From assembly GCA_964396225.1 (NCBI GenBank), contig CAYNEL010000001.1, forward strand, positions 1 to 58,929: a stretch of DNA of 58,929 bases, given 5' to 3'. The DNA comes from an uncultured Bdellovibrionales bacterium. Lineage in GTDB: Bacteria; Patescibacteriota; Minisyncoccia; Moranbacterales; UBA1568. The notes under the pieces were generated by a model. It searched no databases, was not told the origin of the DNA, and saw nothing but the letters and a program-made list of their open reading frames with translations. Made by a program: the position numbers and the translations under genes. Positions 3,561-53,650 of the stretch are shown piece by piece (the first letter of the stretch is position 1; each line of letters starts with the position of its first letter).

Positions 3561-3650
3561 GGAGGCGTGTGTGAGTGGTTGAAACAGGCAGTCTTGAAAA
3601 CTGCTAGGCCGGCAACGGTCTCGAAGGTTCGAATCCTTCCGCCTCCGCCA
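3561..3650 (+). tRNA. tRNA-Ser (anticodon UGA), long variable arm, CCA encoded
   Basis: GGAGGCG...GCAGT-CTTGAAA-ACTGC-TAGGCCGGCAACGGTCTC-GAAGG-TTCGAAT-CCTTC-CGCCTCC-G-CCA. This is a 90-nt class II tRNA. Confidence 0.9.
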
Positions 3651-9377: not shown

Positions 9378-9449
9378 GGCCCCATCGTCTATCGGCTAGG
9401 ACAGCGGCTTTTCAAGCCGTTAAGAGGGGTTCGATTCCCCTTGGGGCTA
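9378..9449 (+). tRNA. tRNA-Glu (anticodon UUC), no encoded CCA
   Basis: GGCCCCA-TC-GTCT-ATCGGCTA-GGAC-A-GCGGC-TTTTCAA-GCCGT-TAAG-AGGGG-TTCGATT-CCCCT-TGGGGCT-A. Confidence 0.9.
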
Positions 9450-9457
9450 CTAAAAAA

Positions 9458-13564: not shown

Positions 13565-14427
13565 AGCTTTCCTGGAAACCTTTCGTCAAAGTCCCTCTGG
13601 TGCTGGCCGAAAACCTCGTCTTCGGGACTTTTCCGTCGCTCCGACCCTGGGTCGAACGTTATCTTTTCAATCCCTACGATTTCAACGAGGCTCATATCGA
13701 GTATTCGAAGAGGAAATTCGATGAATTTTTCGTGGCTCTTCCTGCGGATATTTCACTGGCAAACAAGACCGTGCTCGAACTCGGCCCGGGCGGATCGGTC
13801 GGCTTCGGTCTCCTGGCCCTCCAGGCGGGAGCCGCCCAGTATCTCGCCCTCGATGACGGCGAGCACACCTTCGTCCGGCCTCGGCAGATCCGTGGATATC
13901 GGAAGCTGGTCGGGAACGACACAGTCCTACGGTGTTTCGAGAAGCGGGCCGGACGGATCGTCTATAGGGAAGAGGCCATCCGGTTCAAGAACATCACCCA
14001 GGCTTCTGGGTATCCCCTCCCGGACGCTTCGGTGGACGTCATCTATTCCTGTGCCGTGCTCGAACACGTCCACGACTTGGACCAAGCTTTTTCCGAAATG
14101 TCCCGGGTGTTGAAACCGGGCGGCATCATGTACCATGAAGTGGACCTGCGCGACCATATCTTCTCGCAGGACAGTCTCTGGTTCCTCTCCATTCCAGACC
14201 GTCTGTTCCGCTTCTTCTTCCGCCACACCGGCGGGTATGTCAACCGTGCCCGCTTCAGCGCCTATCGGGCGCTGGCCGGGCGGTTCGGTCTGGAGACGCT
14301 CGCGTGGACGCCCACCATCCGTTTTGTGGGCATTCCGCCGCGCGGTCTCATGGAGCGGTTTTCCGAAGAAGATCTCCGCACCCTGTCGTTTGTGATGGTG
14401 ATCCGCAAGGCCTATGCACATCCCTGA
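13561..14427 (+). CDS. Class I SAM-dependent methyltransferase
   Basis: Motif I is VLELGPGGS. Also present is ...VDVIYSCAVLEHVHDLDQAFSEMSRVLKPGGIMY (Methyltransf_11-like). There is an ATGA overlap with the upstream GT4. Confidence 0.8.
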   Translation: MKLSWKPFVKVPLVLAENLVFGTFPSLRPWVERYLFNPYDFNEAHIEYSKRKFDEFFVALPADISLANKTVLELGPGGSVGFGLLALQAGAAQYLALDDGEHTFVRPRQIRGYRKLVGNDTVLRCFEKRAGRIVYREEAIRFKNITQASGYPLPDASVDVIYSCAVLEHVHDLDQAFSEMSRVLKPGGIMYHEVDLRDHIFSQDSLWFLSIPDRLFRFFFRHTGGYVNRARFSAYRALAGRFGLETLAWTPTIRFVGIPPRGLMERFSEEDLRTLSFVMVIRKAYAHP

Positions 14428-16045
14428 CGCCGCTTCGATCAAGGCATGGCTGAAAAAGCACCAGTGGCTCATTGTCGCGGGACTCTTCTTTGTTATCTTC
14501 AAATTCACCCTCGTGACCGTGTTATGGCATGGTCGGATAGTGCCGCCGTCACCAGATGATTCGTCCGTCTACCTGCTGCATCTCGATTCGGTATTGGATT
14601 GCCCGGTGCTTTTTGGATGTGCTGATTCCCCCGTCAACTTCGGAACATACGCCGGCGTTGACCATCTCGTTTACCGCGTTGGTCTGGGTTGGCCTGGCCG
14701 GCTCTTAGGATGGGACGCGCTCGAGACCTACCGCTGGGGGTTTTATATCGGCACTGTCCTCTTGGCGCTTGCCCTCATCTTCTTTCTGAGCAAACTGAAC
14801 GACGGGAAGCAGAGACTCACGGCCTACTCTCTCTTTATCCTGGCCCTGTATAACGGTGCCGGTTCTTATCACGGGTTTTTCTGGGTGGTGCCCAGTTTTT
14901 TCGCGCTTCTCTTCTTTTTCCTGATTTTGGGGATTTTCTTCGATAGACAGATTCGGCGCTGGCCGCTCTATCTCGCCCTCCTCGTACCTCTCGGGATATT
15001 CAGTCATGTCTTGGGGCTGTATCTCTTGGCGGTACTCCCCTTCTACTGCCTCTTCAATGCCGCTCTGGAAAAACGCATAGATTGGCTGTGTGTCAGGAAA
15101 TCAATCTTTGCTTTCAGTGTGGCGCTCCTTTTCTATGTCCCGACCGTGGCCTATTTCTCGTCGTTTTCCTACGGGAATCCTTATGGGCCGGAAACCCTCA
15201 TCCAGCAGGTTTCTGAGAGGCGCTCTGCCGGGACGCTTGCCCTGACAACGGGCGAAACGGGCCGTTTACCCGGAGAGAGAAACTTGCTTCCCGGCTGGGA
15301 GGGTGTTTCCACGGCCTATTTCCGTTGGATTTTCCCAAGTTGGATAGGCTATGTCATCTTTGCCGCCTGTCTGTGGTTGAATTACCGGTATCGCCGGTAC
15401 AGGATCATCAGTCTTTATCTGGCCGCTGTTCTCTTCACTCTTGCCGCTTCTCTCAATCCGCACGGTGAGCGCTCCCTCATCTTCCTGTGGCCGGTAACGT
15501 TCATATTTTATGGTCAGGCGAGTTGGCTTGGATTGAAGTGGGCCTCGGAAAACCTCAAACCGGGCGTTCCGGTCGAATTGCTGAGGATGCTGATCATGGG
15601 CGTGACGGTATTCTTCGTGATACTGGCCTCGATGTACTCTTTCCTCTGGAACCGTTACCTCAACAGCCTGCGAGACATCGTCGTTCCGGAAGACGTTCTG
15701 ATGTTCCTGTCGGAGCCCGCCCGTCATGAAGCAAAGGTGATGTATGCCACCGAAGTCGCCTTTCTTGATAACTGGATGACACTCGACGGGACGTACCGGA
15801 AACCCGGCCGGACGCTCAGTCTTGATGAATCCGATTACTACGTGACGCTTGACGAGGCGACCCTAAGACACGAAAAAGAGCTGCATGGCACCCTGTTCGC
15901 CCCGTTTTTCGACATCCTTTCTCGCGTTCTGTTGTTCCAGCACGAAATTCCTCCAGCACGGATGGACGGTGAGCGGGTGACTGAGGGCATGAGAGTAGAG
16001 TACTCTTCCGGTCCAGTCCAGATATACGACAGCAATCCAAATTGA
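14414..16045 (+). CDS. Large polytopic membrane protein with a C-terminal soluble domain (GT-C / polymerase-like, family unknown)
   Basis: 543 aa with about 10-12 hydrophobic segments over the first ~420 aa. It overlaps the upstream gene by 14 nt. GC is lower (about 47% in a sampled line). Confidence 0.6.
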   Translation: MHIPDAASIKAWLKKHQWLIVAGLFFVIFKFTLVTVLWHGRIVPPSPDDSSVYLLHLDSVLDCPVLFGCADSPVNFGTYAGVDHLVYRVGLGWPGRLLGWDALETYRWGFYIGTVLLALALIFFLSKLNDGKQRLTAYSLFILALYNGAGSYHGFFWVVPSFFALLFFFLILGIFFDRQIRRWPLYLALLVPLGIFSHVLGLYLLAVLPFYCLFNAALEKRIDWLCVRKSIFAFSVALLFYVPTVAYFSSFSYGNPYGPETLIQQVSERRSAGTLALTTGETGRLPGERNLLPGWEGVSTAYFRWIFPSWIGYVIFAACLWLNYRYRRYRIISLYLAAVLFTLAASLNPHGERSLIFLWPVTFIFYGQASWLGLKWASENLKPGVPVELLRMLIMGVTVFFVILASMYSFLWNRYLNSLRDIVVPEDVLMFLSEPARHEAKVMYATEVAFLDNWMTLDGTYRKPGRTLSLDESDYYVTLDEATLRHEKELHGTLFAPFFDILSRVLLFQHEIPPARMDGERVTEGMRVEYSSGPVQIYDSNPN

Positions 16046-16057
16046 TGCTTCGGACTT

Positions 16058-17947
16058 ATGTGCGGTATCACTGGTAAAATCTCATTCTCCCAGCCTGTCG
16101 AATCGGCCGCTCTCGAGCGGATGAACGAGGCCGTCCGCCACCGCGGGCCGGATGACGGCGGCGTCTATCTCTCCCCTGACCGGCGGGTGGGCCTCGGCCA
16201 TCGCCGACTCTCCATCATCGACCTCTCCCCTTTGGGCCACCAGCCCATGCGCTATCTCGACCGCTACGAGATCGTCTTCAACGGTGAAATCTACAACTTT
16301 CAAGAGAAGCGAAACGAGCTCGAGAAGGAGGGCTACATCTTCGCTTCTCACTCCGACACCGAGGTCATCCTGGCGCTTTACGACAAGTACCGAGAGCGCT
16401 GCCTCGACCATCTCTGCGGGATGTTTGCCTTCGCCCTCTATGACGAGCGGGAGCGGACGCTCTTCTGCGCCCGTGACCGGGCGGGCAAGAAACCTTTCAA
16501 GTATTTCTGGGACGGGACTACCTTCCTCTTCGCCTCGGAACTCAAGGCCATCCTCACTCAGCCGGAATACGTCCGCGAACCGGACTACGAGGCCATCCAC
16601 CACTACCTCACCCTCCAGTACGTGCCGGCGCCCCTGACGGGCTTCGTCGGCATCCAGAAGCTCGAACCGGCACACTCCCTGTTCCTTGATCTGAAAACCA
16701 AGGCACTCAAAAAAGAGCGCTATTGGAAGCTGGATTATTCGCACAAACTCGATCTCTCCGAAGACGAATGGAAAAAACGCATTTTGGAGACCCTGGACGA
16801 GTCCGTCAGGCTCCGGATGGTGGCTGACGTGCCGCTCGGCGCCTTCCTCTCGGGCGGTATCGACTCGAGCGCCGTGGTGGCCATGATGGCACGCCATTCG
16901 GACCGGCCCATCAAAACCTTCTCCATCGGTTTCAAGGAGGAGAAATACAACGAGCTCCCCTATGCCAAGCGGGTAGCCGAGCGTTTCGGTACCGATCACA
17001 CGGAATTCGTCGTCGAGTCGCATGCCATGGAAATCCTCCCGATGCTGGTGCGCCAGTACGAGGAGCCGTTCGCCGACTCGAGCGCCCTGCCCACCTATTA
17101 CGTCTCCAAGCTCACCCGCGAACATGTGACGGTGGCGCTGAACGGCGATGGCGGGGACGAAAACTTTGCCGGTTACGGCCGCTATAGCGTCCAGAAGTTC
17201 GCTCTTGCCTACGATCGGCTGATGCTCCTGCACCAAACCCTGGCGCTCCCGGCGGCCAGGCTGGCCAAGCGAACTCTCCGGAATACCTTCACTGACCGGG
17301 TCCATCGTTTTGCGGAGAGTCTCTCGCAACCATACGACTACCGATATGTCGAGTATCTCTGCTACTTCACCAACGCCATGAAGGACTCTCTGTACACGGA
17401 CGATTTCAAGGCCCGGCATGCCAGGCATGATTCCTATCGACTCGTCTCCGGACGTTTCCGGGAGTCGGGCGCGCGCGACCGGACCGAACAGGCTGTCTCT
17501 GCGGATTTCACGACGTATCTGCCGGGTGACCTGCTTCCCAAAGTCGATATCGCCACCATGGCGGTGGCCCTCGAAGGACGTTCCCCGTTTCTCGATCATC
17601 AGATGCTCGAGCTCACTGCCGAGATCCCCTTTCATCTCAAACTCAAAGGACGGAACGATAAGAAGTATATCCTCAAGCAGGCTTTGCGCGGTATTGTTCC
17701 CGATGAGGTGATGGACCGTCCCAAGATGGGTTTTGGCTTGCCCGTCCACGACTGGTTCCGGGGGGAGCTCAGGCGATATGCGTATGAAACCCTGCTTTCC
17801 GAGAAGGCTGTGGGCCGTGGTCTTTTCAAACGAGAATCGGTTAAGGAATTGCTCGATACGCACACGACGACGCGTATTGACCTCGGTTACCAGATCTGGG
17901 CGCTCTTGACCCTGGAACTCTGGTTTGAAGAATACTTCCCATCCTGA
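16058..17947 (+). CDS. asnB: Asparagine synthase (glutamine-hydrolysing) family amidotransferase, WbpS-like context
   Basis: The N-terminus is MCGITG (Cys2 nucleophile). The PP-loop FLSGGIDSSAVVA is present. 629 aa. Confidence 0.9.
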   Translation: MCGITGKISFSQPVESAALERMNEAVRHRGPDDGGVYLSPDRRVGLGHRRLSIIDLSPLGHQPMRYLDRYEIVFNGEIYNFQEKRNELEKEGYIFASHSDTEVILALYDKYRERCLDHLCGMFAFALYDERERTLFCARDRAGKKPFKYFWDGTTFLFASELKAILTQPEYVREPDYEAIHHYLTLQYVPAPLTGFVGIQKLEPAHSLFLDLKTKALKKERYWKLDYSHKLDLSEDEWKKRILETLDESVRLRMVADVPLGAFLSGGIDSSAVVAMMARHSDRPIKTFSIGFKEEKYNELPYAKRVAERFGTDHTEFVVESHAMEILPMLVRQYEEPFADSSALPTYYVSKLTREHVTVALNGDGGDENFAGYGRYSVQKFALAYDRLMLLHQTLALPAARLAKRTLRNTFTDRVHRFAESLSQPYDYRYVEYLCYFTNAMKDSLYTDDFKARHARHDSYRLVSGRFRESGARDRTEQAVSADFTTYLPGDLLPKVDIATMAVALEGRSPFLDHQMLELTAEIPFHLKLKGRNDKKYILKQALRGIVPDEVMDRPKMGFGLPVHDWFRGELRRYAYETLLSEKAVGRGLFKRESVKELLDTHTTTRIDLGYQIWALLTLELWFEEYFPS

Positions 17948-23209: not shown

Positions 23210-24886
23210 CTAGCGCAGGCGGTAGAGACGGTATTCACCGTCCTCGGCGACCACTTGGAAAGGGTATTCCAAATCTCGGTATGTCAGAAAAAGATGAAAA
23301 TTATATTTTTCTGACAGTCTGATTATGTCTTCAGTCGACAGGTTTCTGTAGATGGTTATCCAGTCCGGAGCGAGGGTCTTGAACTTCCCTCTTGCCAGTT
23401 GTTGTTCGTAGCCGGTTTGCAGGATCCCTTTGCCGATATCGTCCAGCCTCTCGGACCACTCCTCAAGACCTGATTTTGTGAAACCAAAGCATTTGACTGT
23501 GACGACAAGGGGCAGATAGCGTGATCCTTGGGGCAAAGACCAACTTGCCACCGGGGAAAGGACCGGTTCGGGATGGGCATAGATATACTCGATGGTAGCT
23601 AGTTGCTCGGGCATCGTTTCGGCTTGTACGAACCGTACCCAGGAAGCCTGCAGGTTCCCGGGTATTTTTTTTATCAGTCCAACGCCGATCCAGAAAGAAT
23701 AGTATGAGAAAGCAACGAAACAACCGACAAGCAGGAGGGTCATCCCGGACTTTTTGATGCGCGTGCTCTGATCGAAGGTTTTCTTGAGTATCTCGATCGT
23801 TGGTTTATAGTATTCGGCTACAACAAGCGCGGAAAACAAATAGGCGACGAAATATGCAAAATAGATCACCCGTATCGAATAGAATTGAAAGCCGGGGAGC
23901 CATGGATAAATGATCGAGAAGAGGTAGAACACGAACAAGTATGCCACTGAACCAAACGCAATAAGTGTCAGCAGGCCGAGGTCTTTTTTGTTTTTTGCCC
24001 CGGCACTTTTCTTCAGAAGATACCACCCAACCAGTATCGCCGCCACATGAGCGGAGAATATCAACCAGAATTCCGTCGGGACTCTGCTCAGGGCCATGTA
24101 GGGGGCGCGGAAATAAATCCATGTCCAGATGAACTGTGTTTCGGAGAATTCACCCGACTCCCTGTTGAGGTAGGCGATATAGAGGGCGAACCATCCACCG
24201 GCAAGTATGTAAGCGATTGAGGCTGTCGATGCCCTTGAGAGCACTTCCCGCGATAACCTTTTCCAGGGTATCTCGCTATATCTCATGGCTACCTGATGAA
24301 GCACCCACGACCCTAGGAAAAGAGTGAAGACGATGAGCGAATTTGATACATGGATAAGCGTGGCGATGCCCAGGAGAACCCAGGGGGCCCAGCGTCTTCC
24401 CTGCAGGAGGAAATAAAGGGCCAGGAACGAGAGTGTTGAACCGATGATACGGGGCGCTACGCCGCCATCGACCTGTATGAATTTCCCATACATCCAGAAT
24501 GGCGGGGCAAGCATCATGACAGCGGCATGGAGGAAAGCTATAAGCGGGACGACCCATCGGTGCGCCGATATCCTTTCCGATATTTTCCATATCGAGTAAT
24601 ACGTGCCAAAGAGGCAGAGGAAGTAGAGAAGTTGCCTCCAGCGCTCCTCATCGATCTGTAGAATCTCACCGATCTGGATGATCTTGGCGTAAAAGACATA
24701 GACCCCGCTTGCCGCGGCCATTTCGGTGTACCAGTCACCGACGAGATAATGGGGGTCATTGATACGATATACACCTGGATCATGGATCCATCGGTCCGGA
24801 CCGAAAGTCAGGGGGTGCATCCCAAACTCTAAAAGGAACAGAAATGTGACGATGCCTATTATCCCCCAAGGAAGCTGACGTATCAT
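23210..24886 (-). CDS. Large polytopic membrane protein (GT-C/GtrC-like candidate, family unknown)
   Basis: 558 aa with more than 10 hydrophobic segments and a soluble C-terminal ~130 aa. About 42-45% GC. It converges on the + strand GT operon, 5 nt from that operon's stop. Confidence 0.65.
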   Translation of the reverse strand: MIRQLPWGIIGIVTFLFLLEFGMHPLTFGPDRWIHDPGVYRINDPHYLVGDWYTEMAAASGVYVFYAKIIQIGEILQIDEERWRQLLYFLCLFGTYYSIWKISERISAHRWVVPLIAFLHAAVMMLAPPFWMYGKFIQVDGGVAPRIIGSTLSFLALYFLLQGRRWAPWVLLGIATLIHVSNSLIVFTLFLGSWVLHQVAMRYSEIPWKRLSREVLSRASTASIAYILAGGWFALYIAYLNRESGEFSETQFIWTWIYFRAPYMALSRVPTEFWLIFSAHVAAILVGWYLLKKSAGAKNKKDLGLLTLIAFGSVAYLFVFYLFSIIYPWLPGFQFYSIRVIYFAYFVAYLFSALVVAEYYKPTIEILKKTFDQSTRIKKSGMTLLLVGCFVAFSYYSFWIGVGLIKKIPGNLQASWVRFVQAETMPEQLATIEYIYAHPEPVLSPVASWSLPQGSRYLPLVVTVKCFGFTKSGLEEWSERLDDIGKGILQTGYEQQLARGKFKTLAPDWITIYRNLSTEDIIRLSEKYNFHLFLTYRDLEYPFQVVAEDGEYRLYRLR

Positions 24887-24920
24887 ATTCTTTAATATCT
24901 TATGGTGACTACTGCATGTC

Positions 24921-24949
24921 TTGACAAGAGACTTGTTGTATGAAAGAAT
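24921..24949 (+). promoter_or_regulatory. Candidate promoter of the cupin-like gene, with an embedded inverted repeat
   Basis: TTGACA (24921-24926), a 17-nt spacer, then AAGAAT (24944-24949). The inverted repeat ACAAG-aga-CTTGT spans 24924-24936. Confidence 0.4.
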
Positions 24950-24994
24950 TTTCTCGCATAGTAATTTTCAGCTGTATGAATTCTGGAGGTCTCA

Positions 24995-25363
24995 ATGGTA
25001 TCAGCTCCTGGTCGTATCTGTAGTGGAAATGCCGCACTGGATATTCTGCACGCGCCGGAGTCTAGGCAATGGTTGGTTGGTGCGTTTCCTTCTGCTCCTA
25101 TTCATAGCACAACAGTAGAGTTTAAGTACGGACACTCCCTGAAGGGCGAGCACCGTTCGCAAGAGCAGGCCACTTGTGATCCGGTACGTACTAGCATAGG
25201 GATACTGATCCGAGGTCGGATCAGGTACGGTTTCCCTAACAATGAGGTCCTGCTGTTTCGGGAAGGTGATTACGTCGTTTGGGGACCCGGAATTCTTCAT
25301 TGGTGGAGCACTGAAATGGATTCACTCATCCTGACATTTCGTTGGAAAGAGCTTCTCGTTTGA
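24995..25363 (+). CDS. Small cupin-like protein
   Basis: 122 aa. GGAGG lies 5 nt before ATG 24995. ...VEFKYGHS...ILIRGRIRYGF..EVLLFREGDYVVWGPGILHWWSTEMDSLILTFRW resembles single-domain cupins found in polysaccharide loci. Assigned by recall only. Confidence 0.5.
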   Translation: MVSAPGRICSGNAALDILHAPESRQWLVGAFPSAPIHSTTVEFKYGHSLKGEHRSQEQATCDPVRTSIGILIRGRIRYGFPNNEVLLFREGDYVVWGPGILHWWSTEMDSLILTFRWKELLV

Positions 25364-25398
25364 CGTTAGAGGAGAATCGAGTTTGGACGTTATGGATT

Positions 25399-25848
25399 TC
25401 ATAGTGACGGTGGAACAAAATGATTATGTTCCGCCGTCTCTTTTTTTATGGCATAGCTCCAGAGGAAATGGGCTGAGAAGTTGATGAGCGCGATCAGGCC
25501 GGAGACGATAAGGATAACCAGCAAATCATTCAACTTGAAATATTCCACCCCGATCCGCATGAGGATGAGGTTGAGCATCGAGGTCAGGGTGATGACCGTG
25601 AGGAAACGTGGGAATTGACGGCTGATTTTTCCCGCTCCGGCTTCGAAAGTCCAGTGTCGGTTGATCGAATAGTTCCAGATGATGGCGACGGCTAACGAAA
25701 CGACCCTACTCAGGAGATAGTGGAAACCGAAGTATCTCGTGCAGATAAAGTAGATGCCCATGTCGACAAGCAAGGCGGTCCCGCCAGTGACCAGGAACTT
25801 CACCAGCTTGTGCCACGGAAAGATTTCGAACATCGTTTTTGAGAGCAT
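25399..25848 (-). CDS. GtrA-family membrane protein (polyprenyl-phosphate-sugar translocation family)
   Basis: 149 aa with 4 TM helices. FLVTGGTALLVDMGIYF...SRVVSLAVAIIWNYSINRHWTF is the GtrA signature. Confidence 0.8.
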   Translation of the reverse strand: MLSKTMFEIFPWHKLVKFLVTGGTALLVDMGIYFICTRYFGFHYLLSRVVSLAVAIIWNYSINRHWTFEAGAGKISRQFPRFLTVITLTSMLNLILMRIGVEYFKLNDLLVILIVSGLIALINFSAHFLWSYAIKKETAEHNHFVPPSL

Positions 25849-25863: not shown

Positions 25864-26604
25864 TCAGAAATTCCTTGGAGAAACAAAGCGAAAACGAAAA
25901 AAGGTCCAAAGGGCAACGAAGAAATCCCTCGCTCTGATCTTCTTGCCCTCGGAAACCGTCCGGGGGTGATAGCTGATGGGAATCTCGAGAATGCGAATGC
26001 CCGAGCGCAACAGTTTGGCTGTTAATTCGTGATCAGTCTCGAAGCCGGTGGTTTTGATCGCTATCCTCTCGAGGAAACCCTTCGGATATACCTTGTAGCC
26101 GGTCAGGGTGTCGGTCAGATAACGGCCGAAGAGAAGAAAGGCCCAGAGGGAAAGAGCGGTATTGGCGATATACGTGGCCAAGGATTTGTCCTGGTGTTTT
26201 CCGAGCGAGAGCAGGCTGTTACGTTTTTGGCGCTCCCCGAGGATGCGGCTACCATAGACTGCCAGTCGACCGTCTGATTGTGCCAGGGGCGCCAAAAGGG
26301 CGGCATAATCCCGAGGGTCGTATTCGAGGTCGGCATCCTGGATCAGGACGTAGTCCCCTGTGGCATGGGCGATACCGAAACGCGTACCATCCCCTTTGCC
26401 GCGGTTTTTTTCGATGCGGAGAGAGGTGACCCCAGGGAAGGAAGAGGCGATTTCGTGGGTGTTATCCCGAGAGCCGTTGTCGACCACGATGATCTCCCGC
26501 TCGAAGCCGAGCGGCGTGAGATCGATCGCTAGGATACGTTCCAAGAGGGTACCGAGGGAGGCCGCTTCATTATACGCGGGAATGACGATAGAGACTTTGG
26601 GCAT
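25864..26604 (-). CDS. GT2 polyprenyl-phosphate glycosyltransferase (GtrB/DPM1-like)
   Basis: Contains MPKVSIVIPAYNEAASL, IIVVDNGSRDNT and IQDADLEYDP. The C-terminus ISYHPRTVSEGKKI is paralogous to the GT2 domain of the upstream fusion protein. Confidence 0.85.
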   Translation of the reverse strand: MPKVSIVIPAYNEAASLGTLLERILAIDLTPLGFEREIIVVDNGSRDNTHEIASSFPGVTSLRIEKNRGKGDGTRFGIAHATGDYVLIQDADLEYDPRDYAALLAPLAQSDGRLAVYGSRILGERQKRNSLLSLGKHQDKSLATYIANTALSLWAFLLFGRYLTDTLTGYKVYPKGFLERIAIKTTGFETDHELTAKLLRSGIRILEIPISYHPRTVSEGKKIRARDFFVALWTFFRFRFVSPRNF

Positions 26605-29428
26605 GGGGTTTGGGGGTGGTGAAAGACAGCGGCTTCCAAAAAGAAAGACGGATCAGCGTTCCAAGACATCCGATCCCGTCCCAAACGGTGATTTTCTTTC
26701 CTTCCGCCACCGTCCGAGGACGATAAGCGACCGGTATTTCTAGCATAACACGTTTGCTTCTCGCCAGTTTAGCGATGATCTCCATATCGAAATCGAACCC
26801 ATTCCGCTGGAAACGCAAGGGACGGAGCGCGCGCATCTGGAAACCTTTGAGGCTGGTCAAAGGGTCCCCGACGAAACGTTGGTGGAATACCAGCAGGACG
26901 ATGCTCAGGAGCATGCCGCCGTATTTGCTGAGATAGAAGGAAAGGCGTTTGGTGCCGTAGATACGCCGGAGAGAACGGTTGAGATCGGCTGTGCCAAAAG
27001 CGCGGCTTCCGAACACAGCGGAGAAATCCTGGCTGATGAGCGGGGCCAGAATCCGTCGCACATCCTCCGGGTCGTATTCGCCGTCGGATGGGAAGAAAAC
27101 GATGATATCTCCCTTGGCTTTCTCGATACCGAGACGGAGAGCGCGTCCTCGTCCGGTGCGTCCGTGGAGACGGTAAGTCCTTACGCCCGTGATTGCCTGG
27201 GCTATTTCGAAAGTTGTATCGTTCGATCCCCCGTCCACCAAGATGATCTCCTTGTCCAGTCCCATATCATGGAGTTGGAGCTGAAGGAGGCTCTCCAATA
27301 CCTGTTTGACAGTCCGCTGTTCATTGTATGCCGGAACGACTATGGATACTTTCTGCGATACTGGGCGCACTTTCTTCTGAAGCTGATCCTCCACGATAAG
27401 GAGGAGCTCAAAGATGGCTTTGCCACCCGAGTGCTTGCCCTTATCCCCCTCCCAATCGATCCAGGTGACTTGTTCCAGGGGATAGGCAAACTTGGCCGCG
27501 TCAAAAGGCATGTATCCCCCCTCTGTCGGAATCTCGGGTTTTTGGAAAAAAAAGCGAGTGACCAGATCTTGGCAGGCGACCGCGCCTCCCACCTTCCGGC
27601 CCATGTTCCACAGGAAGGCCCCGACAAGGGTATTCACGTTTTCGCCCAAGATGTCGTTATCCCTGACGATATTGGAGATAAAAACCTTTTCGGCCCGCGG
27701 ATTGTCAATGATGGCTTCAGCCACACCAGAGGTGAGGTACGAGGGCAGGAGCGAGGAATATTGGGTCCCGGGACCGTAGATGATGACATCCGCTTCCTTG
27801 ATCGCTCGATCGGCTTCAGGATTGATGGTGGGAAGAGCCTCTCGGCTTCGGAGGAGACGGATGTTGTCGATTTTGTACGCACCCAGAGGATGCGTCTTGG
27901 TATCGAGATATTCGGGCAGGAGAAAGATCTCCTGGATACGGGAAGTGTCCTGAGGACCAACGATACTGGCTTCGTCGTGCAGAAAACGTCCATCCTCCTT
28001 GATTCCTACCAGGACGCGGTTGGTGCCGTCGGTGATATTCAAAACATGATTCCCGATGCCGGCAAACTCTGAAAAAGCGGCCACTGCCCGATTGAAGTCC
28101 CGTGATTCCGCGAGGTAACACCCGGCAAAAAGGAGGTTGCCGAAGGAAACGTCCCCGAACGGGAAAGCTTGTCGATCAGGGTGGTGATTGTAATATTCAA
28201 GAAAGGTATGGAGATAGTGCGTGGCTGTTCGGGCGGCTTCAAGCGTGAGTGCTTCGCGGGCTTTCAATAGATCGTGAGACTGATTATTCACTGGCGCGGT
28301 GAGGTCGCAGAAAGCCTCGAGGACGATGAGGGCATCTGCGGTCGCCATCGGGTCGGGAAAGCGGTATTCGATCAGCTCCACCAATGCCCGGGAGGCATGG
28401 TCCGTCCGTTGCTGGAGGAAGCGGGAAACGTTTTTCCGGACATCAGACGGTCCCAACATTCCGGGGATAAAGCGACGCAACAACCCTGTGGACAGACCGT
28501 CATCGTAAGTATTGACGAGCAGTGTCAGCTCGATGTCCGGATACTTGAGCAGGGCTTCGGTAATCGAGCCGGTACCTCTCCCCCCGGAGAACATCACCAC
28601 CTTGAGCTTGTCGTTTTTGCCGGATCCCAGATCGTTTTTCCGGAAATAATCCTCTAACCTTTCGACATCCTGTCGATCGTTGATGCCGATGGACTCCTCG
28701 GGATTTTCGAGGTGGTAGCCACTGATCTCACTTCCGTCCGTCTCGAAAGCGGGCAACAGCGGCAGGAAGTTCCATTCTCCGGTGGCGGGGCTGAGAGCGA
28801 TGCCTCGTTCGATGGCCGACGCGTACACCGATTTCAGCTTTTCCGTGGAGCAGGCAAAAAGGCCGCAATCATTTTCCCCTTTGGGTGGCATTTCAGCCCC
28901 TTCGCGTCTTTCGAGCACCCTGACCAGGTGCCCGGAGGCGTCTGTCTCAAGATGGATATAGGGGTCGTCCCGAAAGATGAGCGGCAGGGTGAGCGCGCTT
29001 GGTAAGGCACGATGGAGCGTTTGAACCAAGGAAAGCGTCTGCGCGCTCAGGGCGGCCTGATCTCCCCAGACGATGAGGGTGTGGGGAGTGAGGATCTCCG
29101 GCAGGGCGCAATAGACGGAGTCAGCCATTCCCCGCGAATCCTTGATGACGGTAATCTTGCCGCGTTCCCCGAGGCGCTTCCTGACAATCGGGGCGACGTG
29201 AGGTTCGGTTTCCGGTGAAACGACGAACACAATTTTTCCGCAAGCCGGTTCCAAAAGATCAATCAACCGGTCGAGGACGGTCCGACCGCCCACCGGATAC
29301 ATGATTTTTGGCTTCGAGTAGCCGAGGCGGGTGCCTTTGCCGGCGGCAGCCACAACTGCCGTCCAGAGAGAGGGGTCGGGCGGTGGTGAGGCGAGGGATT
29401 GGATCTCGGTACGAGAGTAGATGCGCAT
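26570..29428 (-). CDS. Tri-domain fusion: sugar-phosphate nucleotidyltransferase + CofD/YvcK (UPF0052)-like domain + GT2 polyprenyl-phosphate glycosyltransferase-like domain
   Basis: 952 aa. The NTase domain spans aa ~22-260 (nt 28649-29365), with VVAAAGKGTRLGYSKPKIMYPVGG. The CofD-like domain spans aa ~275-680 (nt 27389-28606), with VVMFSGGRGTG and YGPGTQYSSLLPSYL. The GT2 domain spans aa ~692-952 (nt 26573-27355), with VSIVVPAYNEQRTV, ILVDGGSNDTT and FFPSDGEYDP. It overlaps the downstream GT2 gene by 35 nt. Confidence 0.8.
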   Translation of the reverse strand: MRIYSRTEIQSLASPPPDPSLWTAVVAAAGKGTRLGYSKPKIMYPVGGRTVLDRLIDLLEPACGKIVFVVSPETEPHVAPIVRKRLGERGKITVIKDSRGMADSVYCALPEILTPHTLIVWGDQAALSAQTLSLVQTLHRALPSALTLPLIFRDDPYIHLETDASGHLVRVLERREGAEMPPKGENDCGLFACSTEKLKSVYASAIERGIALSPATGEWNFLPLLPAFETDGSEISGYHLENPEESIGINDRQDVERLEDYFRKNDLGSGKNDKLKVVMFSGGRGTGSITEALLKYPDIELTLLVNTYDDGLSTGLLRRFIPGMLGPSDVRKNVSRFLQQRTDHASRALVELIEYRFPDPMATADALIVLEAFCDLTAPVNNQSHDLLKAREALTLEAARTATHYLHTFLEYYNHHPDRQAFPFGDVSFGNLLFAGCYLAESRDFNRAVAAFSEFAGIGNHVLNITDGTNRVLVGIKEDGRFLHDEASIVGPQDTSRIQEIFLLPEYLDTKTHPLGAYKIDNIRLLRSREALPTINPEADRAIKEADVIIYGPGTQYSSLLPSYLTSGVAEAIIDNPRAEKVFISNIVRDNDILGENVNTLVGAFLWNMGRKVGGAVACQDLVTRFFFQKPEIPTEGGYMPFDAAKFAYPLEQVTWIDWEGDKGKHSGGKAIFELLLIVEDQLQKKVRPVSQKVSIVVPAYNEQRTVKQVLESLLQLQLHDMGLDKEIILVDGGSNDTTFEIAQAITGVRTYRLHGRTGRGRALRLGIEKAKGDIIVFFPSDGEYDPEDVRRILAPLISQDFSAVFGSRAFGTADLNRSLRRIYGTKRLSFYLSKYGGMLLSIVLLVFHQRFVGDPLTSLKGFQMRALRPLRFQRNGFDFDMEIIAKLARSKRVMLEIPVAYRPRTVAEGKKITVWDGIGCLGTLIRLSFWKPLSFTTPKPHAQSLYRHSRV

Positions 29429-29441
29429 CCGGTTTGCCTGT

Positions 29442-30098
29442 CTAGATCAGTCCTCCGACCTCCATTAATTCTGATACTACCATGACGCCATCATCCTGTC
29501 GAAAACCCGAAAAACCCCCTTCTTTAGCCAAAAACAATACCGGTATGCCAGCCGTACGGGCGGCCCGTACACCGTTTTCCGAATCTTCCACTACCACGCA
29601 CTGATCAGGCCGGAGGCCGAGTTTCTCTAGAGCCAGCCGGTAGCAGTCAGGAGCTGGTTTGGCCTGGATAACCTGGGAACCGTCGAGATGGAATTCAAAA
29701 GCGTCCGCATAGCCGCTTCGCTCCAGGAACGAGTCGACGCTTTGGGACGAGGCTGAGGAGACCAACGCGAGGCGGTATTTCTTCTGCAACTGTCGGATGA
29801 GAGGGGCACTCCCCGGGGCTATCCGAGCCCGTTCTTTCAGGAGAACGGCCGCCCTCTCTCGTTTCACGTGCGTCAGGCGCTGGACAGTCTCCTCGTCGAC
29901 GGATCCATGAAGGCGTTTGAGCACCGACCGGATGGCTTCGTCAGTGCGCATCCCGGCGATCGTCCGATAATCCACGTTTTCGATCCCCACCTCCTGAAAG
30001 ACGGATGCATAGGCCAGGGCATGGCATTCGTCAGAGAGGTAGAGGACGCCATCCATGTCAAAAATCACGGCCTTGAGAGTGGTCAAGTCTGGTTTCAT
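29442..30098 (-). CDS. HAD-superfamily hydrolase (beta-phosphoglucomutase/phosphatase subfamily IA)
   Basis: ATG 30098 (MKPDLTTLKAVIFDMDGVLYLS..., DxDG motif) forms an ATGA overlap with the upstream methyltransferase stop. The 303-aa ORF-track extension would lie inside that gene. Confidence 0.8.
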   Translation of the reverse strand: MKPDLTTLKAVIFDMDGVLYLSDECHALAYASVFQEVGIENVDYRTIAGMRTDEAIRSVLKRLHGSVDEETVQRLTHVKRERAAVLLKERARIAPGSAPLIRQLQKKYRLALVSSASSQSVDSFLERSGYADAFEFHLDGSQVIQAKPAPDCYRLALEKLGLRPDQCVVVEDSENGVRAARTAGIPVLFLAKEGGFSGFRQDDGVMVVSELMEVGGLI

Positions 30099-31027
30099 TG
30101 TTTCCGGGCTACGACGCGGGTCTGGCCGATCCAGTACTTGATCGGCAGACGGGAAAGTCCGAGACGCCTGACAGCCGTGGCCAAAAGACGGAACAGCCCG
30201 AAATACGCCCCGGCGCGTTTCAGGACGTATTCCAGCTCCAGGGTTTGCCAGTGGCGTTCCATGTCGACCACGACGAATCCCTTGGCGGCCAATTGTCTCC
30301 GCATGGTCCGACGAGTGTAATAAATGAGATGGACGGAGAGGAGGAAAGGCCATTTACGCCCCATAAAACGGGCGGGCAGGCTGCCGTAATCCGGATAGTT
30401 AACGACCAGAAGGCCCGACGGTTTCAGGATGCGGTATATCCGTTCCAGTTCGGATCCGGGGTCGGTGAGATGCTCGATGACGTCCCAGAGCGTCACCATG
30501 TCGAAAGAAGCCTCCGGAAACGAGTGTTCCGCCAGTGTTCCCGGCTGTACGTCCAATCCCTGGGAGCGGGCGTGTTCCGCCAGCCAGCGGCTGGGTTCTA
30601 TACCGGACGCGCTTACCCCAAAGTCCGTGGCTGCTCGGACGAACGCCCCTCCAGCGCAGCCGATGTCGAGAACCTTGGTGGCGGGTGAGGGGGTGAAGCC
30701 GAAGCGCCGCGCGAGGTCATGCAAGGCGGACGAGAATGTCCGGGCCCGCATCGTATCTTGTTCGACGAAAGCCTGGTCTTCGCCGGCCGCATAGGCTCCG
30801 ATGATGAGATCGGACCGGAGGCGCGGATTGAGGTATACGAGTCCGCAGCCTGCGCAACGCACAATCTGTTCATAGAGCGTCTGGTCGCTCGACGAACGGT
30901 AGGTTTGGGTGAGGAAGTCCTGCGTCAGCTCTGACGGAAAACGAGCTTTGGCAAGGATGCGAAAACGAGCCTCGCCACACAAAGGGCACACGATGGTCTC
31001 GAAATGGTCACTGAAAGGATTGGTCAT
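30095..31027 (-). CDS. Class I SAM-dependent methyltransferase with an N-terminal Cys4 zinc ribbon
   Basis: The zinc ribbon is CPLCGEARF...CAGCGLVYLNP. Motif I is VLDIGCAGGAF. Also present is ...FDMVTLWDVIEHLTDP. Confidence 0.8.
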   Translation of the reverse strand: MTNPFSDHFETIVCPLCGEARFRILAKARFPSELTQDFLTQTYRSSSDQTLYEQIVRCAGCGLVYLNPRLRSDLIIGAYAAGEDQAFVEQDTMRARTFSSALHDLARRFGFTPSPATKVLDIGCAGGAFVRAATDFGVSASGIEPSRWLAEHARSQGLDVQPGTLAEHSFPEASFDMVTLWDVIEHLTDPGSELERIYRILKPSGLLVVNYPDYGSLPARFMGRKWPFLLSVHLIYYTRRTMRRQLAAKGFVVVDMERHWQTLELEYVLKRAGAYFGLFRLLATAVRRLGLSRLPIKYWIGQTRVVARKQ

Positions 31028-31067: not shown

Positions 31068-32318
31068 TTATGAAAGTCTGGAAGTCTGAAAGGGTTTCCA
31101 AAAACGAGCGTATATCAGCAGTGATATTACGAGAGAAGTTTGGAGAACAACCGCATATGATATCGAAGCGATTTCGAGGCTTGAGTGACGCAATATCCAG
31201 AGGGTGAGTATGCTCAATGCATTTGCTAGAGCGTAAGCTATAATGATCTGAACCTGTTTTTTTTCGGCAGTAAGGAAATTTATCAAATAAGTCCGAAAAG
31301 GAAGAAAGACAGCAAGCCATGAAAGACCACGTGCGATTTCCAGGGCGGATTGATAGTCAGTTCCATAAAAAAAGAGAAAGGCCGCTTCGATACATATTCG
31401 TAACACAATGAAGGCGAGAAGGCCCATATAAAGTTGTTGTAATATCGTCTTCTGTCTGACACCCCCCGCACCTTTGAAAAGAGATGGGAGATAAAGCGCG
31501 CTTAATCCAGCCACAAATCCTGCAATGGCGGAAAAGAAAAGAAAGGCTGTCTGATACATCGCAAAGCCAGTGAGACCGAACAAGAGCGGCAGGATGAGAG
31601 CCGGAACATTGTCCCCGAGCGAGAGAAAGAATTTCTGGATCGTGACCCACCAGCCGTAACGTATATCCAGGTCAATTTCTGAAACATCTCTCCCCACCTG
31701 GCTAAGTGATTCGAAGTAGTAGTACCAATGAAAGACGCTAGTGCCCCCAAAATATACCAAAACCAGAAACCAAAGAGGTGCATTTATCGCGATGGCGAGT
31801 ATCAATAAAATTGAGACTGCGAAAGTCTGGGCCATGATCCGCTTACTGACTGGCGAGAATTGCGACTTACCCTCGTACACTGTGTACCAAGTATTCGGGG
31901 CGTAGAAAAAAGGAAAGACTAATGCGCCTACCAAGAAGGCGACAAGAAATTCGAAATTTTTCCCCTGGATGAAAAGCCAGCCACCGTACATGATAAATAA
32001 TGGCAAGGCGAGCAGACTGGTGCGGAAACTGGTACGCACCACACGGCGAACTATTTCCGGGTGATCGTCCACGATGCCCTTTAAAGCAACGAGATTTAAC
32101 CCTGGAATAGAAAGGATGGAGAAAATAGAGAAAATCGCGATGAGCACCTGATACTCCCCAAATAACTGTGGATTCCCAAGACGCGCAAAGGCGATGGTCA
32201 TCGCCAGACCAGCCAAGGAAACAACGAGATATCGCACGCCAATCCAGAAACTATTGTAGAGATCACGCCCCCCAAGTCCCAATAAATGTTTAGGAAGGAT
32301 AGGAGCTCGAGTGGGCAT
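31068..32318 (-). CDS. Polysaccharide/oligosaccharide flippase (MOP/Wzx-like)
   Basis: 416 aa with about 12 TM segments and a basic N-terminus. Sampled lines give about 43-45% GC. Its position in a nucleotide-sugar operon fits this role. Confidence 0.7.
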   Translation of the reverse strand: MPTRAPILPKHLLGLGGRDLYNSFWIGVRYLVVSLAGLAMTIAFARLGNPQLFGEYQVLIAIFSIFSILSIPGLNLVALKGIVDDHPEIVRRVVRTSFRTSLLALPLFIMYGGWLFIQGKNFEFLVAFLVGALVFPFFYAPNTWYTVYEGKSQFSPVSKRIMAQTFAVSILLILAIAINAPLWFLVLVYFGGTSVFHWYYYFESLSQVGRDVSEIDLDIRYGWWVTIQKFFLSLGDNVPALILPLLFGLTGFAMYQTAFLFFSAIAGFVAGLSALYLPSLFKGAGGVRQKTILQQLYMGLLAFIVLRICIEAAFLFFYGTDYQSALEIARGLSWLAVFLPFRTYLINFLTAEKKQVQIIIAYALANALSILTLWILRHSSLEIASISYAVVLQTSLVISLLIYARFWKPFQTSRLS

Positions 32319-35632: not shown

Positions 35633-35688
35633 AGCGGGTAGTGGGTTAGGGTTTTGCCTTGTCGGTACCCCTGTATTATCCTTTATCT

Positions 35689-37140
35689 ATGGGAAAAATT
35701 CAACTCTCCGTCCTGGCCCGCCGGCCAGGGGTTATTCTGGGCCTCATCCTGGCCGCCTTTCTGGCCCGGGAAGCCTTTTTGGTTGCCCTCTCCCCGATGT
35801 TCACCGGTCAGGACGAAGCGCGCCATTACAACACCATCCAGTGGTTGGCTGAAGAACGCCACCAGGCCTGCCTCCGGACGACCAACGAGCACGACCAGGA
35901 GAAAGGAAATCTTGCCACGTACCGTTTCAGCGAAGAGATCCGCCAGACGAGCGACGCCGCCGGCCTCTCGGTGTGGCGGGAAGAAAACTACCGCAAGCCC
36001 CCCTATGCCGCGGGAGCGGTCGGATTCAACGAGCCGCTCATCGCCGAGCGTCCATGGACCCGTGAGATGACTATCTGCCCGCCGGACATCGCCACCAACG
36101 CCCGCGGCTTCAGCCTCTTCCATCTTGCGGGTAGCCTCATCGAGCGCGCCCTGAGCGAATCGGACGTGATGACGCGGTTCTACCTCATCCGTCTCATGGC
36201 GGCGGCGTTCGGGGCGGCGACCGTCCTCCTGGCCTACCTGGCGGCCACGGAAGCTGGGTTTTCCCGCCGGGTGGGGCTCCTCATCGCCTTCATCCTCTCC
36301 CTCCAACCTAAGCTTTCGGTCTATACCACCAATATCAACTACGACGCCCTCCTCATCCCCTGCTTCACCCTCTTCCTCTACGCTGGCATGCGTTTCCTCA
36401 GGCGCGGCCCGAAGCCCGGCACGCTCGTCCTCCTGGTAGGCGCAGCCGCCGGAGCCGCCCTCACCAAGGGAACCGGCCTGGTACTCGCTCTCGGCATGCT
36501 GTTCCTGTTCGCTCTTCGGGCTTACGCCTTTCGCGAGTCTTGGAGAGGGTGGCCGCTCCGATACTGGCTGGCCGGTCTGGTCCTCGCCTCCGCTTTCATC
36601 CTGGCCGTCACGGCCACCTATCCTATCCTCGGCCTTTTTCCCGAGCTCACCCCAGCCTCGTTCACGGAATACCTCGGCAAGAGCCTGCCCAAAATCCCCT
36701 CCTCCTCCGAGAATTTCTGGGGCGTCATCGGCTGGACCGCAGCCGCCTCAGGGCCGTGGTTTGTGTGGATCATCTGGGCTATCGAGGTCGCGGCTGTCTT
36801 CGGTCTCATCCTCTTCTTCCGGCGGGAGCAACGACCGGAGCATCTGCCTGGGAGGCAGGCCGTCCTCTTCCTGATCGTCCTCCTCGCCTCCCTCCAGTTC
36901 GGGGTGCGTCTCCATGACTGGCATGTCTTCCAGACGACCGGCTCTCTTGCTCTCGGCACGCCGGGACGCTATTTCCTGCCCAGCCTGCCGGCCCAGCTTA
37001 TGCTCCTGGCTGCCGGTCTCGGGATGCTCCTCCGGAAACCACTCCTCCTCGAGCGAGCGCTTCAGGTTTTCGCCCTTCTCATCCTTGCCTTCCATCTCTA
37101 CGACATCTGGCTGGTCATCCTCCCCCGTTTCTATCTCTGA
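35689..37140 (+). CDS. Polytopic membrane protein, GT-C/DUF2142-like candidate glycosyltransferase
   Basis: ATG 35689 (MGKIQLSVLARRPGV...) lies 9 nt after the extended -10 TGtATTAT (35672-35679). The early periplasmic loop carries FTGQDEARHY. About 11 TM segments. Confidence 0.6.
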   Translation: MGKIQLSVLARRPGVILGLILAAFLAREAFLVALSPMFTGQDEARHYNTIQWLAEERHQACLRTTNEHDQEKGNLATYRFSEEIRQTSDAAGLSVWREENYRKPPYAAGAVGFNEPLIAERPWTREMTICPPDIATNARGFSLFHLAGSLIERALSESDVMTRFYLIRLMAAAFGAATVLLAYLAATEAGFSRRVGLLIAFILSLQPKLSVYTTNINYDALLIPCFTLFLYAGMRFLRRGPKPGTLVLLVGAAAGAALTKGTGLVLALGMLFLFALRAYAFRESWRGWPLRYWLAGLVLASAFILAVTATYPILGLFPELTPASFTEYLGKSLPKIPSSSENFWGVIGWTAAASGPWFVWIIWAIEVAAVFGLILFFRREQRPEHLPGRQAVLFLIVLLASLQFGVRLHDWHVFQTTGSLALGTPGRYFLPSLPAQLMLLAAGLGMLLRKPLLLERALQVFALLILAFHLYDIWLVILPRFYL

Positions 37141-53562: not shown

Positions 53563-53639
53563 TGGTGCTCGCACCTGGACTCGAACCAGGGACCTTTCGA
53601 ATGTGAATCGAACGCTCTAACCAACTGAGCTATGCGAGC
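53563..53639 (-). tRNA. tRNA-Val (anticodon CAC), CCA encoded
   Basis: The reverse complement reads GCTCGCA-TA-GCTC-AGTTGGTTA-GAGC-G-TTCGA-TTCACAT-TCGAA-AGGTC-CCTGG-TTCGAGT-CCAGG-TGCGAGC-A-CCA. Confidence 0.9.
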
Positions 53640-53650
53640 CAAAAAGGCTG

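Follow-up and report, generated by a model that had tools for sequence, protein, structure and literature searches.

What does a protein do when a single polypeptide joins a sugar nucleotidyltransferase (NTase), a domain of the CofD/YvcK fold, and a lipid-carrier glycosyltransferase (GT)? The question is raised by a 952-aa open reading frame (ORF) at positions 26570-29428 (- strand) of a 58,929-nucleotide stretch of DNA, here called the window, from an uncultured Bdellovibrionales bacterium (GTDB lineage Patescibacteriota, Minisyncoccia, Moranbacterales, UBA1568; assembly GCA_964396225.1, contig CAYNEL010000001.1). The fold of the middle domain is known in two roles, as the phospho-transferase of F420 synthesis and as the cell-wall "checkpoint" protein GlmR, whose biochemistry is debated. 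We consider it likely that the fusion is the core enzyme of a cassette that makes a polyprenyl-phosphate-linked sugar donor at the cytoplasmic face of the membrane, which a GT-C enzyme would then use to decorate a surface glycan. This estimate covers the frame of the pathway, namely the NTase, GT2, GtrA flip, and GT-C steps. For the middle domain itself, we tentatively favor a role as a phospho-sugar transferase that acts on a lipid-linked sugar and releases nucleoside monophosphate (NMP).

The fusion is one real protein, neither a frameshift nor an assembly artifact, because a 952-aa protein from a second, independent assembly (P0001) is 99% identical to it and the same one-frame fusion (NTase-CofD-GT2) occurs in 13 of 80 species-level loci. 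The ORF starts with ATG and is uninterrupted. Each domain scores above its curated Pfam cut-off: NTP_transf_3 (aa 24-135, E 3e-16), CofD (PF01933, aa 277-612, E 2.2e-32), and Glycos_transf_2 (aa 695-822, E 4e-26). An AlphaFold2 model with 98 relatives as input is confident (mean predicted local distance difference test score, pLDDT, 90.7; predicted template modeling score, pTM, 0.69). Its inter-domain linkers are only ~6 residues long, from helix 252-268 to strand 275-280 and from helix 669-686 to strand 692-700. In a Foldseek search of the PDB, the N-terminal third matched the GlmU pyrophosphorylase domain, the middle part YvcK-type UPF0052 proteins, and the C-terminal part ArnC and the Pyrococcus dolichyl-phosphate mannose synthase (PfDPMS). 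Transmembrane prediction on the 952-aa protein gave no true transmembrane (TM) segment. The original prediction, made from the sequence alone, had called a single uninterrupted ORF with these three domains; both calls hold, and the motif strings that it quoted are all present in the translation.

The invariant part of the architecture is the joining of the CofD-like domain to a GT2, which share an ORF in all 80 loci (66 CofD-GT2, 13 NTase-CofD-GT2, and 1 HAD-NTase-CofD-GT2). A pattern scan of 185,579 genomes, one per species, identified this core in 508, including members of the Patescibacteria, Bdellovibrionota, Bryobacterales and other Acidobacteriota, Magnetococcales, Elusimicrobiota, Margulisiibacteriota, Dependentiae, and Myxococcota. 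The architecture, at first taken to be unique, is thus neither rare nor confined to Patescibacteria. Cultured carriers within the Bdellovibrionota are Bacteriovorax sp. BSW11_IV and Fluviispira multicolorata 33A1-SZDP, and in the Bryobacterales isolate F-183 the core lies on plasmid pF-183-2; a tblastn search of plasmids returned only unrelated GT2 matches, in Lawsonia. When the middle domain was used by itself as an exhaustive profile query, 570 clusters (50% identity) were retrieved at E<=1e-30, and the family spans at least eight phyla plus one archaeon. The triple architecture is seen in about 28 protein clusters, whereas CofD+GT2 proteins, ~680 aa in length, make up more than 90. No other partner domain was found among the middle-domain clusters, in which members of odd length are CofD-like domains alone or NTase+CofD proteins. 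A Methanosarcinales metagenome-assembled genome (MAG) encodes a 1148-aa protein with the order HAD-NTase-CofD-GT2.

The NTase is fused in 14 of the 80 loci and is a separate gene in the other 66, and its fusion state changes ~10 times by a rough Fitch count on a neighbor-joining tree of the CofD-GT2 region. Of the covalent three-way partnership originally proposed, the CofD-GT2 link therefore stands as universal, and the NTase link does not. The NTase nevertheless stays close: in the 47 loci whose flanks extend 5 kb or more each way, it is found within 3 kb in 45, a second, paralogous GT2 is a neighbor in 44 (directly downstream in 37), an HAD-family gene in 39, and a methyltransferase gene in 28. 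The neighborhood is conserved, in the order [methyltransferase]-HAD-NTase-CofD-GT2-second GT2. In Bryobacteraceae the HAD and NTase genes are fused together. In Magnetococcales (L053, L073, L077, L085) and one alphaproteobacterium (L076) the cassette is split, with methyltransferase, HAD, NTase, and stand-alone GT2 in one group and CofD-GT2 in a separate or divergent one. We found no description of the cassette or of a CofD-glycosyltransferase fusion in the literature and no characterized example of the pathway, as the original prediction had supposed. The sole related mention, a passing one, concerns Mycoplasma fermentans, where a pseudogene of the CofD family adjoins genes for an NTase and a polysaccharide synthase, and database annotations of family members consist of domain names only.

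The N-terminal domain (aa 22-268; 28625-29365, - strand) is a sugar-1-phosphate NTase of the GlmU type according to Pfam, structure, and sequence matches, and is predicted to be catalytically intact. Its best matches over aa 24-264 are the GlmU structures 1g97 (Foldseek, E 2e-17) and 4aaw (E 1.7e-14). It has the GlmU-type loop G-x-G-T-R...P-K, and alignment to Streptococcus pneumoniae GlmU places R15/K22 at R34/K41, the metal-binding Asp of the GD motif at D123, and the N227 equivalent at N249; the acids of the sugar pocket are also kept (E173/E216). The Gln that reads uracil is missing (the Q72 position is I/K), the sugar-pocket residue N169 is replaced by Asp (D186), and a Pfam scan of the fusion revealed no left-handed beta-helix (LbH) acetyltransferase domain. 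The domain thus appears GlmU-like in mechanism yet is predicted not to be GlmU, because the uracil-specific Gln and the LbH domain are missing. We also considered a CofC-type activator of phospho-acids, an option that the original prediction had entertained, and rejected it: the domain is of the full ~245-aa GlmU type, not the short CofC type.

The C-terminal domain (aa 692-930; 26639-27355, - strand) is a predicted competent polyprenyl-phosphate GT2 of the DPMS/ArnC type, in which P780-S-D782-G-E784-Y stands in place of the canonical DXD motif. Structure 5mlz aligns with aa 691-911, and the Foldseek matches to ArnC and DPMS have E values of 1e-13 to 1e-12. Pfam, alignment to PfDPMS, and synteny identify a stand-alone paralog (GT2s; 25864-26604, - strand) that has a canonical DAD motif, overlaps the end of the fusion by 35 nt, and is 40% identical to the fused GT2 (E 1e-53). 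Both align to PfDPMS across the whole catalytic domain, interface helices and acceptor loop included. On the basis of the residue roles described for PfDPMS (PMC5526996), the metal ligands D91 and Q93 correspond to D782 and E784 of the fusion, the dolichyl phosphate (Dol-P) ligands R117 and S135 to R809 and S834, and the A-loop network R202, K208, and E12 to R905, K911, and E703; across the 98 relatives, each of these positions is either invariant or conserved in 90% or more. The polyprenyl-phosphate type proposed for this domain at the outset is thereby upheld. Three other positions differ: D89, which contacts the mannose, is P780; D39, the guanine reader, is G733; and K178, which contacts the mannosyl and a phosphoester oxygen, is D879. 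From these replacements, we infer that the donor of the fused GT2 is not GDP-mannose and differs in both sugar and nucleotide. Both GT2 paralogs have an acidic residue (D or E) at the K178 position, which may hint that the sugar is an amino or otherwise cationic one.

The altered motif is a family trait. F-P-x-D-x-E-Y, in which the first Asp of DXD is lost, occurs in 97 of 98 family members, with a canonical paralog adjoining. The sole exception is the archaeal four-domain protein, whose GT2 has the canonical motif QDADLEYD of the stand-alone type and is 46% identical to GT2s versus 35% to the fused GT2; no second GT2 was found near it on its 9-kb contigs. This pattern suggests that the GT2 was duplicated and sub-functionalized in bacteria, and the loss of the DXD Asp would fit specialization of the fused copy for presenting a lipid-linked intermediate to the soluble middle domain. 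In one Bryobacterales MAG (L024, 12819-13554) the GT2 downstream of CofD-GT2 is split over two frames, either a pseudogene frameshift or a sequencing error.

The middle domain (aa 275-688; 27365-28606, - strand) was delimited by Pfam, profile, Foldseek, and motif alignment. YvcK/GlmR proteins bind UDP-sugars and serve as accessory N-acetylglucosamine-1-phosphate (GlcNAc-1-P) uridyltransferases of Firmicutes and Actinobacteria. Foldseek gave TM-scores of 0.82 to YvcK 2hzb and 0.78-0.82 across 2hzb, 2o2z, and 2ppv, and a family profile run against the PDB matched only YvcK-type structures, 2ppv (8e-26), 2hzb, 2o2z, 2q7x, and 2p0y. The domain reaches 96 bits with the NCBIfam YvcK/GlmR model TIGR01826 (cut-off 196), in three separate stretches because of insertions, and 95.5 bits with the GAK-system CofD-like model TIGR04357 (cut-off 340). 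Because it falls below these and the F420 CofD cut-off alike, we place it outside the named CofD, YvcK, and GAK branches, in a predicted unnamed branch of the superfamily. Relative to YvcK it has a helical insertion of ~65 aa (aa ~360-425).

Overall, the middle domain looks catalytic and directed at a nucleotide diphosphate. The N-terminal motifs, aligned with the actual PDB sequences of FbiA and CofD and with YvcK fragments, line up cleanly, and the GGxG P-loop is common to all. The metal ligands of FbiA, D45 (GDD) and D57 (PDLD) (PMC7253369), correspond to D309 and D329, both invariant in 98 of 98 relatives. Equally invariant are D309/D310, which align with the catalytic Asp-Asp pair of GlmR (PMC10128056), namely D38/D39 in Bacillus subtilis (PMC13046274) and D40 D41 in Listeria monocytogenes (PMC10128056, PMC13046274), as well as the P-loop, N306, R331, K332, R356, N431, E486, N586, D590, and H666. 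Although overall identity is only ~45%, some 45 positions with polar residues or glycine do not vary from phylum to phylum, and all metal and phosphate ligands known in the CofD/YvcK superfamily are among them. Among the residues of the YvcK UDP-sugar site, T13, N217, Y264, and R300 in B. halodurans numbering (PMC5482804), N217 corresponds to the invariant N586, T13 to R/S284, and Y264 approximately to F626/F627. In a low-confidence C-terminal alignment, R300 (R301 in B. subtilis) falls at E660/G661, with K/R665-H666 nearby.

The genes around the fusion supply the remaining parts of the proposed pathway. Upstream in the operon is an HAD-IA (beta-PGM/CbbY-like) sugar-phosphate enzyme (29442-30095, - strand), of a kind fused to the NTase in some relatives. 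It probably starts at M87 (position 30095), so that its start codon shares an ATGA with the stop of a Zn-ribbon class-I S-adenosylmethionine (SAM)-dependent methyltransferase (30095-31027, - strand; ORF listing and Pfam). For the HAD, CbbY, beta-PGM, TM1254, and the BT2127 pyrophosphatase score alike, all curated models are below cut-off, and mutase, sugar-bisphosphate phosphatase, and pyrophosphatase all stand as candidate activities. Downstream of GT2s is a small GtrA/DPMS-TM-type membrane protein (25399-25848, - strand; PF04138, E 1.3e-21), a candidate flippase or membrane partner of the GT2. Farther downstream is a 558-aa polytopic membrane protein (TM558; 23210-24886, - strand) with no Pfam or NCBIfam family, which is co-located with the cassette in Patescibacteria-type genomes and has 64 "hypothetical" homologs on cassette-bearing contigs, mostly labeled Patescibacteria. 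The top fold matches of the TM558 model (pLDDT 86.5, pTM 0.88) are all GT-C enzymes whose donors are polyprenyl-linked, namely AglB, STT3, AftA, DPY19, and ALG9 (E 3e-4 to 0.2, TM-score ~0.4), and the motif D31-R32-x-x-H35-D36 after its first TM helix is invariant. TM558 is probably an undescribed GT-C family, a structure-based assignment of moderate strength. A PMT_2-type GT-C glycosyltransferase, identified by Pfam, lies at the edge of the surrounding polysaccharide island (35659-37140, + strand). PMT_2 genes also adjoin the cassette in Bryobacteraceae, on a 2.7-Mb contig, and on a Bdellovibrionota-type contig, and Pfam contexts of distant lineages place them beside or within it. The complete Gtr-type three-component set, a GtrB-like GT2, GtrA, and a GT-C, is thus present in one locus. 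Coordinates and Pfam agree with the operon neighbors and overlap coupling first reported, and the adjacent GtrA and the two GT-C candidates accord with the flip-and-decorate logic suggested then.

We propose the following sequence of steps. The HAD would make a sugar-1-phosphate out of a sugar (bis)phosphate, and the N-terminal domain, with its intact GlmU catalytic residues, would condense this with a nucleoside triphosphate to give a nucleoside diphosphate (NDP)-sugar. The stand-alone GT2, the fused GT2, or both, given their intact DPMS residues, would transfer the sugar onto polyprenyl phosphate. Hypothetically, the CofD/YvcK-fold domain, which its obligatory GT2 partner would keep close to the lipid intermediate, would then attack the beta-phosphate of an NDP-sugar via its metal/diphosphate site. 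NMP would be released and the sugar-1-phosphate joined by a phosphodiester to the lipid-linked sugar, which is the chemistry of CofD/FbiA with a sugar-nucleotide donor. The unit may be methylated by the methyltransferase and flipped by GtrA, and TM558 and/or the PMT_2 enzyme, judged by fold, would transfer it outside.

The NMP-releasing step is favored, tentatively, for several reasons. The CofD-GT2 fusion is universal, as would make sense if a soluble domain requires a lipid-binding platform. The fused GT2 lacks the donor-contacting Asp where a paralog exists, and the single-GT2 archaeal protein is canonical. The domain order HAD-NTase-CofD-GT2 is linear. Finally, there is a precedent in CofC and CofD, neither of which functions uncoupled from the other and which share a labile NDP intermediate (10.1101/2021.08.11.456035). 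A number of observations weigh against it. By sequence the middle domain is closer to YvcK/GlmR than to CofD: its family profile recovered no CofD/FbiA chains from the PDB at E<=1, hhalign to CofD/FbiA gave a weak partial match (E 0.005), and the F420 CofD model TIGR01819 scored 18.2 bits versus a cut-off of 257. The CofD/YvcK-like call made originally accordingly survives for PF01933 and the YvcK fold, and not for CofD of F420 synthesis. The activities demonstrated for YvcK/GlmR, the nearest characterized relatives, are UDP-sugar binding and uridylyl transfer (PMC5482804, PMC10128056), with no NMP-releasing phospho-transfer among them. The fused GT2 keeps its nucleotide and metal ligands and has therefore probably retained transferase activity of its own. 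The covalent NTase link is recurrent but facultative, because its fusion state changes repeatedly on the tree. In split cassettes the NTase travels with the stand-alone GT2 apart from CofD-GT2, and channeling from NTase to CofD is therefore not obligatory. It is possible, though on balance unlikely, that the GT2-fused branch amounts to a new class of nucleotide-sugar phosphotransferase acting on a lipid-carrier-bound substrate, with polyprenyl-P-sugar-P-sugar or polyprenyl-PP-sugar as product. If true, bacteria would have a fourth way of decorating glycans with phospho-sugars, in addition to the Stealth, LicD, and TagF-type enzymes, and the ancestral activity behind the long-debated YvcK/GlmR proteins would come to light.

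The alternative that survives best, possible but on balance unlikely, is that the middle domain supplies or gates the fused GT2 in the manner of GlmR. As a supplier, it would make a UDP-sugar from UTP and a sugar-1-phosphate and hand the donor straight to the fused GT2. As a gate, it would bind a UDP-sugar such as UDP-GlcNAc and control the GT2 allosterically, so that the scarce polyprenyl-phosphate carrier goes into decoration only while wall precursors abound. In either case, the HAD and the GlmU-type NTase, with or without the methyltransferase, would feed the stand-alone GT2 or that same pool. Among solved structures and curated families, the closest relatives are of the YvcK type, and the catalytic Asp-Asp pair of GlmR is invariant here (PMC13046274). 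The split cassettes, which pair the NTase with GT2s and the CofD-like domain with the fused GT2, suggest two parallel donor-plus-transferase modules, and the window has two GT-C candidates. However, the archaeal four-domain protein would then hold two NTase-type domains for one GT2, a redundancy that is hard to explain. The Arg that binds UDP-GlcNAc in B. subtilis YvcK (R301) is not retained at its position in the low-confidence alignment, the YvcK score is only about half of the cut-off, the ~65-aa insertion intervenes, and the yvcJ-yvcK-whiA context is absent. A model with two NTases for two GT2s was downgraded on the evidence of the archaeal protein and its single canonical GT2.

A purely structural, non-catalytic role for the middle domain, as a relic of its fold that holds NTase and GT2 together or mediates oligomerization with the paralogous GT2, is improbable. 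The short linkers and compact model would suit such a role, and GT2s of the DPMS type are commonly oligomers, as seen in GtrB and ArnC structures. The ~45 invariant positions, with all metal and phosphate ligands among them, would be unexpected in a scaffold.

We give still less credence to a new soluble phosphoglycosyl transferase, in which polyprenyl phosphate held by the fused GT2 attacks the beta-phosphate of the NDP-sugar to give polyprenyl-PP-sugar and NMP, and thereby starts a Wzx-dependent repeat unit. Formally this is the CofD reaction with a phosphate nucleophile, and the fused GT2 keeps its polyprenyl-phosphate ligands. A scan of island ORFs, which was not exhaustive, found no WecA/PglC-type initiating transferase, yet a Wzx-type (Polysacc_synt) flippase is present by Pfam at the upstream end of the operon (31068-32318, - strand). 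WecA-type Glycos_transf_4 genes do occur in the loci of relatives, however, and the GtrA and GT-C partners indicate monophosphate-linked donors.

Very improbable is a soluble small-molecule product, either a glycosyl-phospho compatible solute or a cofactor resembling F420 or glucosylglycerate. HAD phosphatases and methyltransferases accompany GpgS-type GT-A enzymes in the pathways for glucosylglycerate and methylglucose lipopolysaccharide (MGLP), the first ~110 residues of the GT2 domain also match GpgS, and the fusion has no TM helix. Over its full length, however, the GT2 resembles DPMS/ArnC and not GpgS, interface helices and acceptor loop included, and the Dol-P phosphate ligands are kept. 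GtrA, GT-C, Wzx, and GT4 genes place the cassette in O-antigen/exopolysaccharide (EPS)-type islands in several phyla, and Pfam scans of island ORFs found no CofE/CofG/CofH-type genes. The F420-like or compatible-solute reading was rejected on this gene context and the DPMS-type residues. A sequencing or assembly artifact that welded two or three genes together can be virtually dismissed: the NTase is mostly a separate gene in relatives, its end overlapping the start of CofD-GT2 such that a single indel could fuse them, but besides the 99%-identical independent protein, the in-frame fusion recurs in 13 other species genomes and ~28 protein clusters, and the junction is modeled as an ordered short linker.

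The cassette is embedded in a polysaccharide island (~12400-37200) with a G+C content of 0.50-0.58 versus ~0.62 in the flanks. Besides Wzx, the island encodes several GT4s and methyltransferases, a CapD-type dehydratase, epimerases, an AsnB-like amidotransferase (16058-17947), and a 543-aa protein with seven TM segments and no known family (14414-16045). A ~500-nt gap (24887-25398) separates the GtrA and TM558 genes and contains a 122-aa ORF on the + strand (24995-25363) with no family match. Housekeeping genes (RecG, TsaD, a ClpB-like AAA+ protein, and GH1) flank the island, and six tRNA genes (Arg-CCG, Arg-GCG, Ser-TGA, Glu-TTC, Val-CAC, and Ala-CGC) lie at 2713-2889, 3561-3650, 9378-9450, and 53563-53721; the context is therefore chromosomal, not a mobile element. 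In distant lineages, O-antigen/EPS genes of WecA, Wzy, and CapD types are found near the cassette. Outside the Patescibacteria, a gene for a ~505-522-aa class-B (B12-binding) radical-SAM methyltransferase-like protein lies directly upstream of the methyltransferase gene, sometimes with a flavin reductase (L084 6109-7626, L085 6469-8004, L086 6776-8344); its matches include P-methyltransferase models, and no such gene is present in the window. Several MAGs in the European Nucleotide Archive (ENA) that bear the title "uncultured Bdellovibrionales" are 57-64% identical to the window and to MAGs labeled Patescibacteria and have the same Patescibacteria-type synteny throughout (GtrA, TM558, GT4); the taxonomic labels of one MAG group may be wrong.

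The fusion suggests that, in envelope synthesis, the CofD/YvcK fold works on nucleotide sugars where the lipid carrier comes into play. It also makes the question of YvcK-like function testable in one polypeptide, by release of UMP versus UDP versus pyrophosphate (PPi). The cassette marks a previously unrecognized surface-glycan modification in Patescibacteria, Bdellovibrionota, and Acidobacteriota, groups in which very little is known of the envelope chemistry, although attachment to hosts and predation probably depend on it.

By comparison with known systems, the individual parts are of known kinds, and the whole resembles a Gtr/Arn-type three-component pathway with its own nucleotide-sugar supply. 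What is new is the CofD/YvcK-fold domain as the obligatory covalent partner of a lipid-carrier GT2, and the conserved cassette in which the two are found. Specifically, the N-terminal domain shares with the GlmU pyrophosphorylase domain its fold and sequence over aa 24-264, the loop, the metal Asp of GD, and the N227 equivalent, and differs in the missing acetyltransferase domain, the replaced Q72, and the change of N169 to D186. As in CofC/CofD (FbiD/FbiA) of F420 synthesis, an NTase lies beside or is fused with a metal-dependent CofD-fold domain whose metal ligands are kept; in contrast, CofC acts on 2-phospholactate, phosphoenolpyruvate, or 3-phosphoglycerate, whereas the NTase here is GlmU-type, the fusion partner is a lipid-carrier GT2, and no genes for FO or F420 lie nearby. 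With YvcK/GlmR the middle domain shares the fold, the invariant Asp-Asp pair, and the motifs GGxG (P-loop), DDGxSxGxxR, PxDxR, YRF, GNL, GPGxxxxSxxP, K..x.N, and H-x-G. It differs in its sub-cut-off score, its insertion, the UDP-GlcNAc-site Arg not found at the aligned position, and the sequence VNxxDD, as in CofD, where YvcK has VTVADD. It is also always GT2-fused and found in polysaccharide islands, with HAD, methyltransferase, GT2, GtrA, and GT-C neighbors in place of the operon yvcJ(rapZ-like)-yvcK-whiA. The whole has a parallel in the Gtr/Arn/DPMS systems (GtrA/GtrB/GtrC, ArnC/ArnT, and DPMS with PMT-type GT-C enzymes), which likewise combine a DPMS/ArnC-type GT2, with acceptor-phosphate and metal residues kept, with a GtrA-family protein and GT-C transferases in the same locus. 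Unlike in those systems, the GT2 here is duplicated, with one copy carrying P-x-D-x-E-Y and fused to a CofD/YvcK-fold domain, neither GT2 has a TM segment, and the cassette brings its own NTase, HAD, and methyltransferase, joined in some lineages by a B12-radical-SAM enzyme.

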